From assembly GCF_053078305.1 (NCBI RefSeq), contig NZ_CP166879.1: a DNA stretch of 64,000 nt. The stretch is one strand, 5' to 3'. The stretch's first letter is position 1. Every line of letters begins with the position of its first letter. The notes under the pieces are model-generated. The model made no database searches, was not told the DNA's origin, and worked only from the letters and a program-made list of their open reading frames with translations. The position numbers were made by a program, and so were the translations under genes. Shown piece after piece: positions 16,471-56,783 of this stretch.

Positions 16471-16953
16471 ATGGCGATAAAAGGGCTTGATCAGGCGATT
16501 GATAATCTGAGCCGGGTTCGTAAAAACGCCATTCCTGCTGCTTCAGCAATGGCCATTAACCGCGTGGCCACAACGGCAATAAATCAGTCTGCGTCACAGG
16601 TTGCCCGTGAGACAAAGGTACGCCGGAAACTGGTAAAGGAAAGGGCCAGGCTGAAAAGGGCCACGGTAAAAAATCCGCAGGCCAGAATCAAAGTTAACCG
16701 GGGGGATTTGCCTGTAATCAGGCTGGGTAATGCGCGGGTTGTCCTGTCCCGACGCAGGCGACGTAAAAAGGGGCAGCGTTCATCCCTGAAAGGTGGCGGC
16801 AGTGTGCTTGTGGTGGGTAACCGTCGCATTCCCGGCGCGTTTATTCAGCAACTGAAAAATGGGCGGTGGCATGTCATGCAGCGTGTGGCCGGGAAAAACC
16901 GTTACCCCATTGATGTGGTAAAAATCCCGATGGCGGTGCCTGTAACCAGGTAA
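16471..16953 (+). pseudogene. Z: tail protein Z, upstream part truncated by Mu-like insertion (ends with 3 foreign codons)
   Basis: Matches remembered lambda Z to ...IPMAVP, then VTR-stop from inserted DNA; remainder found at 56278-56391. Confidence 0.8.
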
Positions 16954-17245
16954 ATCATTTGATACCGACAAGGGTTTTAGTGAAAGGAGGTGAAATCACC
17001 TGTAAGATACTGAAATAAAACAGGTGATCGATGATTCTGGAGGTTGTTTAGTTTTGATACTGATTAAATAAAATCCGGTATAAAATTAAGGTATCGGCAA
17101 CAAATTTGATACTGCACATACTGCTTATGGACGTTTTTAAAAGTACTTAAAATGTCTTTTATGCTAAAAAGTTTATATCAATATCGATCTGGTCACAAAT
17201 CAAGTTGAAAGTGCTCGCTAAGTGCATAGCCTGGGCTTCATGGGG

Positions 17246-27031: not shown

Positions 27032-27457
27032 ATGGCAGAAACTCAGATGAGCATGTTTGGTGGTGACAGTGAGCAACTGCACGCCCTTATCGACCGCCTT
27101 GATGACATCCCTGATGATGTTCTCAAAAAGAACTGGCCGCGTACCCTGTCTGAACTGGTTGAAGTCACCGGCGCAGAACTTCAGCGTCAGGGGATTGAGC
27201 CGGTACTGGCCGGTAAACTGGCACGCAAGGTGGCTGCGGCTCAGGCCGCCTATATGGGCGGACGGGGTTATTACCTGCCGGTCGGGGAATCTCTCTTTGC
27301 CGAGCTGCGAAACAATGAGATATTTTCGCGCTGGGACCGGGGCGAGAAAATTGAATCCCTTCGCCGCCATTACCGGATGTCAGAAACCCAGATTTATACC
27401 GTCATACGTGAACAGCGCCGTCTGCATCTGGCAAGAACACAACCGCCACTTTTCTGA
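27032..27457 (+). CDS. mor: Mor/C-family transcriptional activator
   Basis: 141 aa; C-terminal HTH and placement before lysis genes. Confidence 0.65.
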   Translation: MAETQMSMFGGDSEQLHALIDRLDDIPDDVLKKNWPRTLSELVEVTGAELQRQGIEPVLAGKLARKVAAAQAAYMGGRGYYLPVGESLFAELRNNEIFSRWDRGEKIESLRRHYRMSETQIYTVIREQRRLHLARTQPPLF

Positions 27458-51101: not shown

Positions 51102-51662
51102 ATGCTGATTGGCTATATACGCGTATCAACAAATGACCAGAACACAGGTTTACAAAGAAATGCGCTGGAATGTGCAGGATGTAAGCTGATTTTTGAAGAT
51201 AAAATGAGCGGAAAAACAACGCAGCGGCCGGGACTGAAGCGGGCACTGAAGAAACTAAAACCCGGTGACACGCTGATGGTCTGGAAACTGGACAGGCTGG
51301 GGCGCAGTATGCGCCACCTTGTTGCGCTGACAGATGAATTACAGCAACAGGGGATAAATTTTCGTAGTCTTACTGACAACATTGATACGTCAACCCCCAT
51401 GGGGCGCTTCTTTTTTCACATAATGGGTGCGCTGGCAGAAATGGAGCGTGAATTGATTGTCGAACGGACACGGGCTGGTCTTGCAGCTGCCCGTGAAAGG
51501 GGACGAACCGGTGGCAGACCCCGTCGTCTCACGCAGGAACAATACGAGCAGGTCGGGCGTTTACTGGCCGGGGGTGTCAGCCGAAGACAGGTGGCACTTA
51601 TTTTTGATATCGGCCTTTCAACCCTTTATCGTTATTATCCTGCAAGCATTTCGGAAAAATAA
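51102..51662 (+). CDS. gin: serine recombinase, Gin/Hin/Pin-family DNA invertase
   Basis: MLIGYIRVSTNDQ catalytic N-terminus, C-terminal HTH; adjacent to inverted repeats. Confidence 0.9.
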   Translation: MLIGYIRVSTNDQNTGLQRNALECAGCKLIFEDKMSGKTTQRPGLKRALKKLKPGDTLMVWKLDRLGRSMRHLVALTDELQQQGINFRSLTDNIDTSTPMGRFFFHIMGALAEMERELIVERTRAGLAAARERGRTGGRPRRLTQEQYEQVGRLLAGGVSRRQVALIFDIGLSTLYRYYPASISEK

Positions 51663-51752: not shown

Positions 51753-53810
51753 ATGAATATTATGACGTCCAAATGGGTTCAACTATCATCAATGCCCGGA
51801 AACTTTACCGTTAAAGTTTCCGGTGGTACAGCGGCATTTCTTGAGGCTCCTTTTCCTCCGGCTGAAACGAAAGGAGGAATGACATTTGCTGACTGTCTCA
51901 TCAGTTTTAATACACAGGATTGCCTGTGGGTAAGGCCAGTATCCGGTGATCCGAACGTGGAAATTACCGGAGCGGGTATTGGTGCTGTCATTCCGTTAAG
52001 TGCTGATGTTGCCGGTACTACTGAACCGTCAGACTGGGATAATGCTGAAACACATACCCGTCCGGCAGGAAATGAAACGGCTTCCAGCTCCCCTTCCTGG
52101 TATTACGTGATTGTTATAGCCGGTCAGTCCAATGCTTCATCTTATGGTGAAGGGTTGCCCCTGCCGGATTCTTATGATCGTCCTGATCCACGTATTATGC
52201 AGCTGGCACGCAGGAATACACAAACCCCCGGAGGTATTCCCTGCAAATACAATGAAATCATTCCAGCAGATCACTGCCTTCATGATGTTCAGAATATGAG
52301 TCTGCTGAACCATCCAAAAGCAGACCTGAAAAAAGGGCAGTATGGTTGTGTGGGTCAGGGACTTCATATTGCGAAAAAAGTATTACCGGTGATTCCTGCT
52401 GATGCCGGGATTTTACTGGTTCCCTGTGCCCGTGGCGGCTCTGCTTTTACAACCGGCGCAGTTGGCTCATTCGATCCGGCAAGTGGTGCAGCCGAGGCGT
52501 CACTACGCTGGGGAGTGGATACCCCACTGTATCAGGATCTTGTCAGTCGAACGAAAGCGGCACTTGAGGCGAATCCAAAGAATGTGCTGTTATCTGTCGT
52601 ATGGATTCAGGGGGAAGGAGACCTTAAAGCGACCCCGGCCCAGCATGGTGCCCAGTTTACTGCGATGGTGAAAAAATTCCGTGCGGATCTTGGTGCTTTC
52701 TCCGGTCAGTGTATTGGTGGTTCATCAGACAGTGTGCCGTGGTTATGTGGTGACACAACCTATGACTGGAAAGAGAAGAACCCGGCGGCATATGAAACCA
52801 TTTATAGCGGATATAAAAACCGGGCTTCCGAGAACATTCACTTTGTTCCACTGATGCACGATGAGTTCGGTAATAAAACCGCGACCAACCTGCCGGAGCA
52901 CGACCCGGATATCGCTTCTGCCGGGTATTATGGTGCGGAATCACGGGGAGATGGCAACTGGACAACAGCATCCAGGGCAACCCATTTTAGCTCCTGGGCG
53001 CGCCGTTTTCTGGTCTCAGATCGTTTTGCATCAGCAATTCTTAAATATGCAGGTCTGACCTCTGCATTTATTGCCGGTGTGGCCCCTGATGGTGAAGCCC
53101 TGCCTCAGCCCGCGCCGGGTGGAAAACCGGAAGCTCCGACAGGTAGTCAGCCAGGAAGCAGTGAGTCCCCCCAGCCGACATCCCCGTCACTCCGTACGCT
53201 GCTTTCACTTAAAGCATCAGCAGGGGAAGCCCCGGCTCAGGGATGGAAAATTACAGATGGTACAATCCAGCTGACGGACGAAGGTAAAGCGCTGACCGTA
53301 TCCAAACAAAGCGGAAAAACCTGGTCACTTACCCATGCGACCAGTGCTGCCGGAGAGCTGTTGCAGCATGGTGGTCAGTTGACCTGTAAATTCCGTCTGT
53401 CAGGTGAAGTAAAAGAAGGCCAGTTTGCTCTGGGTATTTACCTCCACACCGATACGGTCCCGGAAGGTGTAACCATGAGTGGTACAGGCACACCGTTCCT
53501 GATGGCGTATTATCTCCAGACAACAGGCGGCCAGTTAAATCTGATGCACCATAAAACAGGGGGGAATACGAAACTGGGATCATTTGGAGCCTACAATAAC
53601 CAGTGGCATACACTTGTCCTGAAGTTTACGGCGGGAAGTGCCCAGGTAACGCCTGTGCTGGATGGCACTCCGGGCCAGGCATTCCAGATGGTGAAAGATG
53701 CACTTTCCCCTGCCAAAGATACGCTGACACTGACAGATGTCACCAAAGGGGCAACTTATGGCGTGTCTTTTGAGAGCGTTGTCCTTGAGGTTAATACCCC
53801 TGCGGCATAA
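51753..53810 (+). CDS. NanS-p-like sialate O-acetylesterase (SASA-type esterase with lectin-like C-terminal domain), tentative
   Basis: 685 aa; GQSNASSYGEG esterase motif; cargo position between gin and com/mom. Confidence 0.5.
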   Translation: MNIMTSKWVQLSSMPGNFTVKVSGGTAAFLEAPFPPAETKGGMTFADCLISFNTQDCLWVRPVSGDPNVEITGAGIGAVIPLSADVAGTTEPSDWDNAETHTRPAGNETASSSPSWYYVIVIAGQSNASSYGEGLPLPDSYDRPDPRIMQLARRNTQTPGGIPCKYNEIIPADHCLHDVQNMSLLNHPKADLKKGQYGCVGQGLHIAKKVLPVIPADAGILLVPCARGGSAFTTGAVGSFDPASGAAEASLRWGVDTPLYQDLVSRTKAALEANPKNVLLSVVWIQGEGDLKATPAQHGAQFTAMVKKFRADLGAFSGQCIGGSSDSVPWLCGDTTYDWKEKNPAAYETIYSGYKNRASENIHFVPLMHDEFGNKTATNLPEHDPDIASAGYYGAESRGDGNWTTASRATHFSSWARRFLVSDRFASAILKYAGLTSAFIAGVAPDGEALPQPAPGGKPEAPTGSQPGSSESPQPTSPSLRTLLSLKASAGEAPAQGWKITDGTIQLTDEGKALTVSKQSGKTWSLTHATSAAGELLQHGGQLTCKFRLSGEVKEGQFALGIYLHTDTVPEGVTMSGTGTPFLMAYYLQTTGGQLNLMHHKTGGNTKLGSFGAYNNQWHTLVLKFTAGSAQVTPVLDGTPGQAFQMVKDALSPAKDTLTLTDVTKGATYGVSFESVVLEVNTPAA

Positions 53811-54082
53811 TCGTGACGGCCGGGAATTTATCCGGCTGTAACATCAGTTAATAAGAGTGAGGCTTATATGACATATATAAACGTCTGCCTGCTGTATTTC
53901 TGCACGGTGGTTTGTTGTCTGTTGCTTGTCAGCGGTGGTTATAAAATTATTCGCAATTATTTTCGAAATAAAATTGATGCAGCTGCCGAGGAAAAGATAA
54001 AAAGCGGTGCTGTAATGCCGCAGCCGAAAGACTCCGGTCAGATTTAATTTTTTGTGAACCAGAAAAGGAAAGGAGAATATTC

Positions 54083-54328
54083 ATGCCAGAGATTAAAGGC
54101 ACGGTTACTGAAGAGCTTGTCAAACAGGCACTTTATTCTGAAGAAGTGAACCGCGTGCTGAAGGCGCAGGTTCGCAAGGATTTTGAGGCACAAATCGACG
54201 CATATGTTGATGAAGTGCTGGCCCGAATGGTTGGCCATTCTCCGGCTGAAAACAGCACGGAGAATGAGCCTCAGCCCGTAGAGCAACCAGAGCCGGTTCA
54301 GCCCGGAACTGACAGTGCCATGATGTAA
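54083..54328 (+). CDS. hypothetical protein
   Basis: 81 aa, AAGGAG RBS. Confidence 0.4.
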   Translation: MPEIKGTVTEELVKQALYSEEVNRVLKAQVRKDFEAQIDAYVDEVLARMVGHSPAENSTENEPQPVEQPEPVQPGTDSAMM

Positions 54329-54402
54329 CAATACAAACCGACAGCTTCTCCTGTCGGTTTGATTTTCATGGGCGATGTATATACCAGTCAGAGGAAATAA
54401 TC

Positions 54403-54603
54403 ATGGACAAGAACAAAAAGCAGCCCGATACCAAAGGTCTGGAAATATTAAGCGCAGAAATTATCAATGCGCTACGTTCAGGACTTGATGAAAATACATT
54501 ACAGGATCGAAACTTCACCACTGCAATGTGGATAGCGATGCAGATCCTGTGTACCCCAAGATGCGCTATTTTTGCGGTTCGTGAGGGTCAGTTGACTCGC
54601 TGA
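54403..54603 (+). CDS. hypothetical protein
   Basis: 66-aa ORF; competing antisense ORF 54566-54796. Confidence 0.3.
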   Translation: MDKNKKQPDTKGLEILSAEIINALRSGLDENTLQDRNFTTAMWIAMQILCTPRCAIFAVREGQLTR

Positions 54604-55258
54604 TTGCCCGAATTACATCAGAAAAGCACGCGTTCCATAATTGCATAGCTGATGAATCACCAGCTGTATGAAAAGAGGTAAAGACACAACTGGTGGATGT
54701 CATTGCTGCAATTGTGATATCAGCTGCAATTCGCGCAGCCTGTAACTTTTGGTCGGTGGTCAGTTTATCCATTTTCTCCTGCCTGAACAGATGCATCTCT
54801 GCTTTACAGGAGGCCGGGGAATATCATAGGATACACCACGAGCTCAGAGTGAAGCATTGATGCAGTTTTTTACAGATTGACCCAGAATAGTTCGCGCTAT
54901 CTGAGTCGCCATTTATGTAGTCCCGAAGTAAAGCATTGATGCAAACTTGTCTAAATCGGCCCAGCATAGTTCCAGCTATGCTGGGTTTCCCTTTTATGTA
55001 GTATCCTGTTGATTTGAAACATACTACATATACGCGCGATCCTACCTTCACTGGATAAAAAGTCAATAAAATGATCATTTTATGATCGTTTTCACCACCT
55101 AACTCTTCGTTTTCTTTAAGTAAATAATCACCGCCCTGAATCATTGTTGATGACTTTTCAATCTATTTGTTGTATCAATTAAACAAATCGAATCGATCGT
55201 TTTTGTCGATCGATTGCATGAGAAAGGCATCAACAACAAAGCAGGAGGTTATGCGGCC

Positions 55259-55459
55259 ATGTATCGAAACATACGGTGCCGACACTGCAATAAGCTACTG
55301 GCACGGGCCAGTTTCAGTTATCTGGAAGTAAAATGTCCGCGCTGTAAAACCCTCAATCAAATCACATCTCCGAGCGCCACAGAGCACCCCACATACACAA
55401 GGAAATCCTGTCGTGGGGAACAGAAAGCAAGTCACATCCCGTATCATCAGCACGCCTGA
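55259..55459 (+). CDS. com: Com zinc-finger translational activator of mom
   Basis: CRHCNKLL...CPRCK zinc finger; overlaps start of mom. Confidence 0.75.
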
Positions 55460-56150
55460 ACTTATTCGCTATAACGACAATATCGTTGGTTATGGTTCCC
55501 GTGAGTTGCGGGTTGAGACAATAAGTTGCTGGCTGGCCAGACTGGTTATCGTCAATAAACATTACAGCCACCGTTTCGTAAATAACTCCTACCTTCATCT
55601 GGGCATATTTTCAGAACGGGAACTTGTTGGCGTAATGCAATGGGGTTACGCCCTTAACCCAAACAGTGGTGCACGCGTCGTAACGGGTACGCAGAACCGA
55701 GAATATATGGAGCTGAACCGGCTATGGATGCATGACTGTATGCCGAGAAACTCCGAATCAAGGGCAATCAGTTACGCGCTCAAGCTAATCAGGCAGCTTT
55801 ATCCGCAGGTACAGTGGGTTCAGTCGTTTGCAGATGAGCGTTGTGGCTGTCTTGGTGTCGTGTATCAGGCAAGCAATTTTGATTATGTAGGCAGCCATGA
55901 AACAATATTCTATGAACTTGATGGCGAGTGGTATCACGAGATTTGCAGGAATGCCATTAAACGAGGCGGACAACGAGGTGAACATCTGAGGGCTAATATC
56001 GACAGAGCCAGTGTGCATAAGTTCCGACAGTTTCGTTACATCCGGTTTCTGAACAAGAGGGCCAGAAAACGCCTCAACACAAAGCTATTCAAAGTCCAGC
56101 CTTACCCAAAACCACAAACAGTTAAAACTGGTTTGAAAGAGAGTGAATGA
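55413..56150 (+). CDS. mom: DNA modification protein Mom
   Basis: 245 aa at extreme right end after com, as in Mu. Confidence 0.7.
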
Positions 56151-56277
56151 GCGCTTAAAAACTCATTCTAAAACTCAAAAGAAAAGCGCCGATTTAGTAT
56201 CAAATAAGTTGCGTATCGGCGTTTTTCAGCGGTATCAAATGAAATGCAAATCGGTATCAAAAAAATCGCCGCGCTAT

Positions 56278-56391
56278 ATGCCGCTGACCACAGCATTTAA
56301 ACAGAATATTGAACGTATCCGGCGTGAACGCCTGCCAGAAGAACTGGCATATGCGCTGAAACAACAACTGAGGATTGCGATAAAACGATGA
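56278..56391 (+). pseudogene. Z: tail protein Z, downstream part resuming after Mu-like insertion
   Basis: [36 protein letters not shown] matches remembered lambda Z C-terminus. Confidence 0.8.
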
Positions 56392-56783
56392 AACATACTG
56401 ATATCCGTGCAGCCGTACTGGATGCACTGGAGAAGCATGACACCGGGGCGACGCTGTTTGATGGTCGCCCCGCTGTTTTTGAGGAGGCGGATTTTCCGGC
56501 GGTCGCGGTTTATCTGACGGATGCAGAGTATACCGGTGAAGAGCTGGATGCTGATACCTGGCGGGCCACACTGCATATTGAGGTGTTTTTACCGGCACAG
56601 GTACCGGATTCAGAGCTTGATCAGTGGATGGAAAGCCGGATTTACCCGGCGATGGCGGCGATCCCTGCACTGGCAGGCATGATTACCACGATGGTTACGC
56701 AGGGCTATGAGTATCGTCGTGATGACGATATGGCATTGTGGAGCTCTGCAGATCTGACTTATTCCATTACATACGAGATGTGA
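56388..56783 (+). CDS. U: tail terminator protein U
   Basis: 131 aa; near-identical to remembered lambda U. Confidence 0.9.

Follow-up and report, generated by a model that had tools for sequence, protein, structure and literature searches.

An operon at the right-hand end of a Mu-like prophage of the Sp18/Phi804-3 type is very probably com-mom, with the mechanism of control proposed below. As judged from homology, it is the already-known anti-restriction DNA-modification module of the Mu type, here in E. coli, and the GATC palindrome in front of it aligns as the counterpart of the Dam/OxyR control site of phage Mu. The current understanding of com-mom is unchanged by this, and the value of the analysis lies in annotation and interpretation. 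The features discussed are the following.

55164..55258, + strand: conserved com-mom regulatory region of 95 nt; its left limit is that of the module shared with relatives whose cargo upstream is different
55165..55188, no strand assigned: second dyad, ATTTGTT-N10-AACAAAT; unique exact match in the window
55191..55215, no strand assigned: palindrome AATCGATCG-N7-CGATCGATT with two Dam sites, homologous to Mu GATC II and III
55216..55232, + strand: hypervariable patch separating the palindrome from the com Shine-Dalgarno sequence, from the alignment of relatives
55243..55248, + strand: com Shine-Dalgarno sequence AGGAGG
55259..55459, + strand: com, 66 aa zinc-ribbon translational activator, from Pfam, homology to Mu Com and RefSeq names
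55372..55388, + strand: Com RNA target motif GAGCGCCACAGAGCACC, fitting GAGNNCC-N3-GAGNNCC, with its core CC-ACA-GAG at 55377-55384
55387..55418, + strand: predicted translation-inhibition hairpin, from RNA folding
55413..56150, + strand: mom, encoding a 245 aa GNAT-fold enzyme (predicted by homology) for N6-carbamoylmethyl-adenine in DNA
56197..56278, + strand: prophage right end with three GTATCAAA repeats

The Prophage and Its Relatives

The prophage occupies 39.3 kb (16941-56278) of the window, i.e., of the whole 64,000-nucleotide stretch that was analysed, and has transposed into the tail gene Z of a lambdoid prophage. Uninterrupted, this gene has the sequence GGCGGTGCCGCTGACC, whereas here it is split into ...GGCGGTGCC / prophage / TGCCGCTGACC, and a target duplication, TGCC, at the prophage ends amounts to four of the 5 bp expected for Mu. 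The GTATCAAA repeats of the right end, at 56197, 56232 and 56254, are probable transposase-binding sites, and the left end at 16941 bears the mirrored TTTGATACCGA. The mom gene stops 128 bp from the right end. The description of the module as lying at the “extreme right end”, given in an earlier note on this DNA, is therefore correct for the prophage but not for the window, in which 56278 is the point where matches to over 200 E. coli genomes end and the lambdoid gene Z resumes directly afterwards.

Mu-type early and middle gene domains (Gam, Gp11 (Gp11_C), GemA and Mor) are found in the prophage. Among the early and middle genes checked there is one Mor-family activator only, encoded at 27032-27457, whereas Mu has both Mor and C. 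Mu com-mom (Mup54/Mup55, NC_000929 35768-36602) likewise follows the gin invertase region at a transposable phage's right end, but Mu lacks the 3.6-kb cargo (a SASA/DUF6645 esterase, DUF1378, DUF826 and repeats) that is inserted here between gin and com. A strong + strand terminator (54958-54996) precedes com, and a tRNA scan of the window found none.

Of 5426 complete E. coli genomes, 232 contain the same module, 95-99.6% identical; its genes are annotated there as Com and Mom, and the copies have different flanking genes and varied insertion sites. The right end of Phi804-3 (FRIK804, H27) is 98.5% identical to positions 54900-56278. Phi804-3 is itself 96.5% identical to Sp18 (PMC7430833), the prophage of E. 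coli O157:H7 Sakai, and the likeness to Sp18 is drawn through Phi804-3. These prophages are of nearly the same length (38.8-39.2 kb) and, like the one in the window, occupy varied insertion sites; minor variants separate them from the window in 55216-55232. Sp18 encodes Mom and its regulators (PMC3299994) and was judged to be intact (PMC2669165).

The com and mom Genes

The com ORF runs from an ATG at 55259 to a stop at 55459, with the Shine-Dalgarno sequence, kept in all aligned relatives, 10 nt before the ATG. Its product matches the Pfam family PF10122 (Zn_ribbon_Com; 46.8 bits against a cut-off of 22.9, 2e-12), is 47% identical to Mu Com, and has near its N-terminus the zinc ribbon CxxC-N15-CxxC (Cys7, Cys10, Cys26 and Cys29). 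Com is a zinc-ribbon protein that binds the mom mRNA. The mom gene, taken as the maximal ORF, begins with a GTG at 55413 and ends at 56150, and its overlap with com measures 47 nt, compared with 50 nt from the GUG in Mu. The earlier note had described a Com-type zinc finger ORF overlapping the start of a Mom-like gene and had read the pair in the manner of Mu; both genes and the overlap were confirmed, and the alignment to Mu that it proposed as a check gave strong homology for both proteins.

Mu Mom moves glycine from Gly-tRNA(Gly) onto the N6 of adenine in double-stranded DNA, and the glycyl adduct is then converted by rearrangement into N6-carbamoylmethyl-dA, a modification that blocks many restriction enzymes. 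The Mom of the window is 79% identical to the Mu protein, spans the Pfam family Mom (PF25680) from position 1 to 202 of 202 with 259.2 bits against a cut-off of 27.1 (3e-77), and matches the solved Mom structure PDB 8BV8 with an E-value of 2e-123. The residues described as essential or important in Mu Mom are R111, S124, D149, R151, W48, H58, Y59, Y159 and W181 (PMC13219725). Ten functionally important Mu residues were compared and all ten are kept: Y20, W40, H50, Y51 and R103 of the window correspond to Mu Y28, W48, H58, Y59 and R111, and S116, D141, R143, Y151 and W173 to Mu S124, D149, R151, Y159 and W181. In the HTH-like insertion (Mu Mom 175-209), 28 of 35 residues are identical. Homology thus shows the gene product to be Mom, a GNAT-fold, tRNA-dependent DNA adenine glycyl/carbamoylmethyl transferase. 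If the prophage were induced, its DNA should carry N6-carbamoylmethyl-adenine and would for that reason be resistant to many restriction enzymes; atypical SMRT or nanopore signals would also be expected.

A com homologue also stands in front of a DNA-modification gene at the right-hand terminus of prophages resembling Mu, namely FluMu, Pnm1 and B3 (PMC3299994), but there an unrelated non-specific adenine methyltransferase replaces mom, whereas the window has a true Mom. The RefSeq records of the Sp18/Phi804-3-type relatives name the genes as “Com family...” and as “protein mom” or “Mom family adenine methylcarbamoylation protein”, although the NCBIfam release searched contained no model matching Com or Mom.

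Proposed Translational Control of mom

The cis elements for translational activation of the Mu type, which the earlier note had invoked, are present. The RNA motif selected by Com in SELEX experiments is NGAGNNCC(N)2-3GAGNNCCNN, with the core CC(N)2-3GAG (PMC6483171), and the motif at 55372-55388 is a full match to the consensus GAGNNCC(N)2-3GAGNNCC and is kept across Com lineages. Directly downstream, RNA folding predicts a 6-bp stem in which CCCCAC (55387-55392) pairs with GUGGGG (55413-55418), so that the GUG start codon of mom lies inside the second arm and its Shine-Dalgarno sequence AGGA (55400-55403) in the loop. Folding of the Mu sequence gives the same start-codon stem, i.e., the mom GUG paired in CCCAC/GUGGG with a CC-N3-GAG Com target just 5′ of it. 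According to the proposed mechanism, the GUG at 55413 would be locked in this stem until Com, itself a product of this mRNA, binds the neighbouring CC-ACA-GAG and the stem opens; the production of Mom would then wait on the accumulation of Com.

Loops differ among Com lineages, but the CCCAC...GUGGG stem is the same in most of them, and it is identical in every lineage that has it, which leaves no compensatory change to count; covariation therefore cannot support the start-codon hairpin. Part of the conservation of the stem may be owed to the two overlapping reading frames, and the hairpin folds with an energy no more favourable than shuffled sequences do (z = -0.5). In Mu, the Com motif is presented by a small hairpin (AUGC/GCAU), which here is just 2-3 bp.

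The GATC Palindrome as a Putative Dam/OxyR Site

Transcription from the Mu promoter Pmom is under the control of two host proteins, Dam and OxyR (PMC3378877 and papers cited there). The palindrome with two GATC sites described in the earlier note exists exactly as a sequence, but its range of 55175-55215 was slightly too wide, the true one being 55191-55215: a perfect 9-nt inverted repeat with arms at 55191-55199 and 55207-55215, a spacer of 7 nt, and GATC at 55195-55198 and 55208-55211. The window contains the exact pattern once (0.2 matches would be expected when up to 3 mismatches are allowed), its GATC pair is the sole adjacent one at exactly 13 bp in the 64 kb, and it closes the sole run of five GATC within 180 nt. 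Since the window holds about ten independent perfect inverted repeats with 9-nt arms, mostly terminators, the palindrome alone is not statistically remarkable, and its meaning comes, through the alignment, from its homology to Mu. It can be aligned base for base with GATC sites II and III, located upstream of mom in Mu, and shares with them the spacing of 13 bp and the flanking AATCGATC...GATCGATT. This homology points to methylation-sensitive control of com-mom.

Mu has three GATC sites, with site I located 18 bp upstream of site II, whereas the conserved module of the window lineage has two only. The centre of the second dyad, ATCAATTAAA, matches the spacer between Mu GATC I and II, and a TATC (55173-55176; 22 bp before the first GATC) occupies the place of GATCAATTA in the relatives L031 and L032; from this alignment it looks like a lost GATC site I. 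An upstream cluster of GATC at 55038, 55073 and 55084 was rejected as part of the control region: these sites lie in variable cargo that is absent from the relatives L008 and L015, which have the same com-mom module.

The putative OxyR dimer half-site is ATCGTTTTTGTCGAT at 55196-55210. When the OxyR consensus ATAGnTnnnAnCTAT-N7-ATAGnTnnnAnCTAT was scored along the region, the match at 55174 was weak (13/20, reached by 3.2% of composition-matched shuffles), and the best register in Mu, 2157, also scored 13/20 and is the homologous one; the half-site scored 7/10, as 43% of shuffles do. The resemblance to the OxyR consensus is thus only suggestive. The positions taken for the OxyR footprint in Mu come in part from secondary citations.

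A GATC pair at 13 bp is found upstream of com in nine of 14 Com lineages, and a pair at 18 bp in three more. Across lineages with different activators, it is the GATC and the 13-bp spacing that are conserved, and not the flanking bases. That the pair is kept with fixed spacing in most Com lineages, while the remainder of the promoter has been rebuilt, suggests that it is Dam sensing, rather than the C-activator box of Mu, that the transcriptional control of mom has conserved as its core. Dam would accordingly gate com-mom transcription in the proposed mechanism, with the 13-bp GATC pair forming one OxyR-type dimer half-site: the unmethylated site would bind OxyR, leading to repression, and the methylated site would not.

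The same arrangement of a 13-bp GATC pair in one OxyR-type half-site occurs in the Dam/OxyR switches of P22 and Salmonella gtr and of E. coli agn43. In P22 gtr, the GATC pairs at -110/-97 and -46/-33 each lie in an OxyR half-site, and methylation abolishes OxyR binding (PMC2909390). The placement in the window appears to resemble that of gtr GATC3/GATC4, which overlap the promoter at -46/-33. However, gtr has three half-sites, two GATC pairs and ON/OFF phase variation, while the conserved module here shows only one evident GATC pair, and the regulated genes differ in function. A BLAST search of 50,697 phage records with the palindrome region (35 nt) as query found no P22 gtr or agn43-like site; what it returned was, in two Stx phages, again this Mu-like insert and, in phage Chuche, a partial match immediately upstream of com, and the remaining hits, in mycobacteriophage helicase genes, were due to chance.

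A Shorter Upstream Region and Competing Explanations

Upstream of about 55163, the relatives L008 and L015 show no relation to the window, whereas downstream they are near-identical to it. With the module boundary at about 55164, the cis elements are confined to 95 nt. A sigma-70 scan of 54300-56400 gave no + strand candidate between the terminator at 54958-54996 and com, and com and mom would be co-transcribed from a weak promoter without consensus hexamers within 55164-55258. The distance from the palindrome to the com ATG is 43 nt, compared with 70 nt in Mu, i.e., 27 nt shorter. By comparison with the Mu late-promoter sequences (PMC4461284), the Mu C-box (TTAT-N6-ATAA / ATAACC), the T6 run and the TAAGAT -10 are all absent from these 43 nt; the equivalent GATC site in Mu lies upstream of a separate C-activator box. 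With only 43 nt available, the Dam site would overlap the promoter's -35 and spacer part, and probably overlaps the core promoter. Six sequence versions of 55216-55232 exist among relatives whose Mom is 97-100% identical, and GAGAAA at 55220-55225 aligns with TATACT/TATAGT in L028-L030 and GATAAA in L015; by its position, this patch is likely the -10 and start-site region.

A fuller proposal combines these points: a compacted Mu mom promoter with a single Dam/OxyR half-site on the core promoter, no C-box, and a mom that is phase-variable or timed by hemimethylation. Taken jointly, these elements are unlikely to hold. If they did, mom could be heritably ON or OFF in lysogens, or alternatively timed to replication-coupled hemimethylation without a dedicated late activator, and the hypervariable patch would tune promoter strength. 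The proposal covers the Sp18-type lineage and three related Com lineages, and its geometry is likened to that of P22 gtr.

The shortness of the region also bears on what the palindrome itself does. The genes could be com and mom and the palindrome an operator for a phage protein, such as the Mor-family product of 27032-27457, rather than a Dam/OxyR site, with its GATC content incidental or tuning the binding of that protein. A perfect dyad centred some 30-40 bp upstream of any plausible start is what dimeric activators typically have, a separate C-box of the Mu type would not fit, the Mor-family gene is single among the early and middle genes checked, and the OxyR consensus is matched weakly. 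Against this, pattern searches for both dyads found no similar dyad or half-site upstream of other candidate late operons of the prophage, local alignment of 55160-55240 with eight other prophage intergenic regions gave only chance 6-10-mers, and what is conserved among lineages with differing activators is the GATC with its 13-bp spacing and not the flanks. Such an operator is considered unlikely. That the palindrome acts as RNA, either as a 5′-UTR hairpin of a transcript started upstream or as a - strand intrinsic terminator, is highly improbable. A terminator scan did flag a - strand 9-bp stem followed by CGATTTGTTT; TTTGTTGT (55166-55173) could pair with ACAACAAA (55233-55240) around the palindrome, and a longer imperfect inverted repeat (55135-55157 with 55223-55245) flanks it. 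But the stem has four G-C pairs only and a poor T-tract, no - strand gene downstream of com-mom needs termination there, the upstream arm of the longer repeat falls outside the conserved module and is missing in L008 and L015, and the + strand terminator at 54958-54996 makes read-through into com-mom unlikely. With Rfam, both 53800-56400 and three com-less relatives gave only scores far below the gathering thresholds.

The shortening of about 27 nt relative to Mu might, on the other hand, have removed the promoter and left the module a silent relic with mom unexpressed, as the lack of a recognisable -10/-35 and the hypervariability between the palindrome and the Shine-Dalgarno sequence would allow. 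This is very unlikely: both ORFs are intact and all catalytic residues are kept; Mom relatives from viral contigs are 97-100% identical over many loci, and the DNA is, as noted above, 95-99.6% identical among the 232 E. coli genomes with their many insertion sites, a near-identity which indicates recent transposition of an active phage; and Sp18, as mentioned, was judged intact. The short architecture is, moreover, common to L028-L030, which have good TATACT/TATAGT boxes at the equivalent place.

The com and mom genes

The earlier note had described a Com-type reading frame overlapping the start of a Mom-like gene, and this arrangement is confirmed. Both products match their Pfam families, and the two genes overlap by 47 nt. 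The features of the module are as follows.

55191-55199 and 55207-55215: palindrome AATCGATCG-TTTTTGT-CGATCGATT, a perfect inverted repeat with 9-nt arms
55243-55248, + strand: AGGAGG, Shine-Dalgarno sequence preceding the com ATG
55259-55459, + strand: com, ATG start, 66 aa (ORF listing and sequence reading of 54800-56600)
55413-56150, + strand: mom, GTG start (the earliest possible in frame), 245 aa

The com product matches Zn_ribbon_Com at 2e-12 (46.8 bits, cut-off 22.9), and the mom product matches Mom at 3.2e-77 (259 bits) over the whole profile length. Alignment to Com and Mom of phage Mu (NC_000929), the check proposed in that note, gave 47% identity for Com and 79% across 229 residues for Mom, and the solved Mu Mom structure 8BV8 is matched by the window Mom with E = 2e-123. 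RefSeq names the Com homologue a "Com family DNA-binding transcriptional regulator", whereas the experimental literature has Com as an RNA-binding translational activator; the Mom homologue is a "hypothetical protein" in several RefSeq genomes.

Mu Mom uses Gly-tRNA(Gly) as the donor of a glycine that it attaches to adenine N6 in dsDNA, and the adduct rearranges on the base to 6-NcmdA; R111, S124, D149 and R151 are essential, W48, H58, Y59, Y159 and W181 are important, and an HTH-like insertion (175-209) is required (2026 Nature Communications; PMC13219725). In a global alignment, W40, H50, Y51, R103, S116, D141, R143, Y151 and W173 of the window Mom are identical to all the named Mu residues, and the HTH-like insertion is identical at 28 of its 35 positions. 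Judged by this homology, the window Mom is almost certainly a working enzyme that yields this same modification.

The prophage and its insertion site

When 54900-56300 was compared by megablast with 5426 complete E. coli genomes, 232 carried the region (90-99.6% identity), with varying flanking genes, and nearly all matches end at window position 56278. The placement of the module at the extreme right end therefore holds for the prophage and not for the window, where lambdoid genes lie beyond that point. These are the C-terminal third of the tail gene Z, followed by U and V; the N-terminal part of Z stops at 16940, where the Mu-like sequence opens with TGTAACC, and lambdoid head genes lie upstream of the insert. 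Uninterrupted gene Z reads GGCGGTGCCGCTGACC; in the window it reads ...GGCGGTGCC, the 39,338-bp insert and then TGCCGCTGACC. TGCC is duplicated at the junctions (16940/16941 and 56278/56279), which accounts for 4 bp of the 5-bp duplication expected from Mu-type transposition. Gam, Gp11, GemA and Mor domains are present among the products of the insert. The insertion presumably inactivates tail assembly of the host lambdoid phage. A Mu-like phage insertion is also annotated in two Stx-converting phage records, LC727881 and LC727895.

At the right end (56197-56269), the motif GTATCAAA occurs three times, and its mirror image TTTGATAC is found in several copies at the left end (16955-17115); these repeats are probably transposase-binding sites of the prophage. 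The terminal dinucleotides are TG...TA, compared with TG...CA in Mu.

One of the E. coli matches, in strain FRIK804, falls at the right-hand end of Phi804-3, a 39.2-kb Mu-like prophage that shares 96.5% identity with Sp18 of O157 Sakai (PMC7430833), and Sp18 encodes Mom plus regulators at the Mu positions (PMC3299994). RefSeq labels in relatives read "Com family..." and "Mom family adenine methylcarbamoylation protein" or "protein mom". Given this literature and annotation, the module was already known: it is a textbook system in a prophage type already described, and hundreds of genomes carry annotated copies of it.

Cargo absent from Mu (51753-54328) separates com from the gin-like invertase (51102-51662). 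It encodes a SASA/DUF6645 sialate-O-acetylesterase-like protein of 685 aa, together with a DUF1378 and a DUF826 protein; two loci encoding relatives of the window Mom, L008 and L015, carry other DNA in its place. This SASA/DUF6645, DUF1378 and DUF826 trio is typical of Stx and lambdoid phage late regions. Two tandem repeat units, spaced 79-81 bp apart and 75% identical, occupy 54848-55002 (AGT(G/A)AAGCATTGATGCA...CCCAG(A/C)ATAGTT...GCTAT, each ending CC(A/T)TTTATGTAGT); the second copy has a strong terminator-like hairpin (54958-54987), and no Rfam match was found for the units.

The GATC pair and probable Dam/OxyR control

In Mu, OxyR binds the unmethylated GATC cluster and Pmom is repressed, and Dam methylation lifts the repression. 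Control of Pmom transcription by host Dam and OxyR is stated in the passage of PMC3378877 that cites Bolker & Kahmann (1989) and Hattman & Sun (1997).

The palindrome upstream of com has GATC starts at 55195 and 55208. Its pattern occurs once in the window (pattern search), and its sites are the only adjacent GATC pair with exact 13-bp spacing in the 64 kb. Statistically the palindrome does not stand out, the window having about ten independent perfect inverted repeats with 9-nt arms, this one included, and its meaning therefore comes from the comparison with Mu. Against the Mu sequence upstream of com (GACGATCGAATCAATTAAATCGATCGGTAATACAGATCGATTATGCCCC), it aligns with GATC sites II and III, sharing the flanks AATCGATC...GATCGATT and the 13-bp spacing. 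The earlier note, which had reported a palindrome with two GATC sites consistent with methylation-sensitive control, was right in both observation and interpretation.

The comparison was extended to 80 loci with Mom 68-100% identical to the window Mom, com being located in 71 of them. A 13-bp GATC pair stands upstream of com in 9 of 14 Com lineages, only an 18-bp pair in three, and none in two. Since the surrounding promoter sequence varies greatly from one lineage to another, it is the GATC geometry that is the conserved feature. The 13-bp geometry is common to P22 gtr, where the GATC pairs (-110/-97 and -46/-33) are each contained in a single OxyR half-site and abolition of OxyR binding by methylation is experimentally documented (PMC2909390). 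A putative OxyR site at 55174 scores 13/20 against the consensus, in the register homologous to Mu's best (also 13/20). Just six positions of the 64-kb window score that high, but when the 95-nt module is shuffled with its composition kept, 3.2% of the shuffles do so too, which makes the match only suggestive.

A compact promoter region

The distance from palindrome to com ATG is 43 nt in the window and 70 nt in Mu, and the Mu C-box TTATGCCCCAATAACC (for comparison, ATAACCCC in the Mu lys, I and P promoters; PMC4461284), T6 run and TAAGAT -10 are absent from the window. Mu GATC site I is TATC at 55173; the relatives L031 and L032 have GATCAATTA there. In alignments, L008 and L015 share the window sequence only downstream of ~55163, DNA upstream of it being unrelated, and all cis elements must therefore lie within 55164-55258. 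The GATCs at 55038, 55073 and 55084 were rejected as part of the module, as they belong to variable cargo that is absent from L008 and L015. They sit in an imperfect palindrome with 23-nt arms (55052-55097, centred on AATGATCATT), the 9-mer GATCGTTTT occurs at 55084 and again at 55195, and a doubtful - strand ORF, marked frameshifted by RefSeq, overlaps this 55038-55097 group.

A promoter scan of the com upstream region found no consensus sigma-70 promoter on the + strand, which fits an activator-dependent promoter. In L028-L030, which also have the short architecture, the proximal GATC is followed 11-13 nt later by TATACT or TATAGT; the equivalent hexamer is GAGAAA in the window (55220-55225) and GATAAA in L015. 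If 55220-55225 were the -10 element, the GATC pair would lie at about -37 and -24, within the core promoter, and OxyR bound there would directly occlude RNA polymerase. Between the palindrome and the com Shine-Dalgarno, a 17-nt patch (55216-55232) exists in six versions, one with a 6-nt insertion, among loci with Mom 97-100% identical and nearly invariant flanks; this variability may reflect tuning of the promoter or a scar left by recombination.

The early and middle genes that were profiled include a single Mor-family member (27032-27457; Pfam Mor, 2.8e-32), which sits immediately between gemA and the gene for the endolysin; in Mu, Mor and C are encoded separately. No motif shared by the com upstream region and other prophage intergenic regions was found. 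The only mildly new points, both of them comparative, are the conserved 13-bp Dam pair and a compact promoter class without the Mu C-box.

Predicted translational control of mom

Com recognizes CC(N)2-3GAG in a small hairpin adjoining the translation-inhibition structure that holds the mom GUG, with the SELEX consensus NGAGNNCC(N)2-3GAGNNCCNN (PMC6483171). The window sequence GAGCGCCACAGAGCACC at 55372-55388 fits this consensus completely. Directly after it, CCCCAC (55387-55392) pairs in RNAfold with GUGGGG (55413-55418), which contains the mom start codon, and the loop of this hairpin has the AGGA Shine-Dalgarno of mom; Mu has the same start-codon fold. The small presenting hairpin differs, with AUGC/GCAU in Mu and only 2-3 bp in the window. 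The lineages preserve GA(A/G)(T/C)GCC-N3-GAGCA(C/T)CCCAC together with the CCCAC...GUGGG stem, and the loop varies in length and sequence; because the stem is invariant, covariation is uninformative for it.

Mom relatives without com

The most interesting side observation concerns loci (L073-L082) whose Mom is 68-71% identical to the window Mom and in which both a com ORF and the GATC cluster are absent. They have in common a leader of ~110 nt, 3' of a terminator-like hairpin (~1385-1500 of each locus), for which no Rfam match was found. RNAalifold predicts a nested hairpin at its 5' end (GGGTG-GCCCGG...CCGGGC...CACCC) and a 3' helix (GYACACC/GGAGTRC plus GUC/GAC) that buries the mom Shine-Dalgarno, with compensatory changes in 9 of the 26 predicted pairs among seven sequences of only 3-4 types. 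As modelled, the leader may switch mom translation independently of Com.
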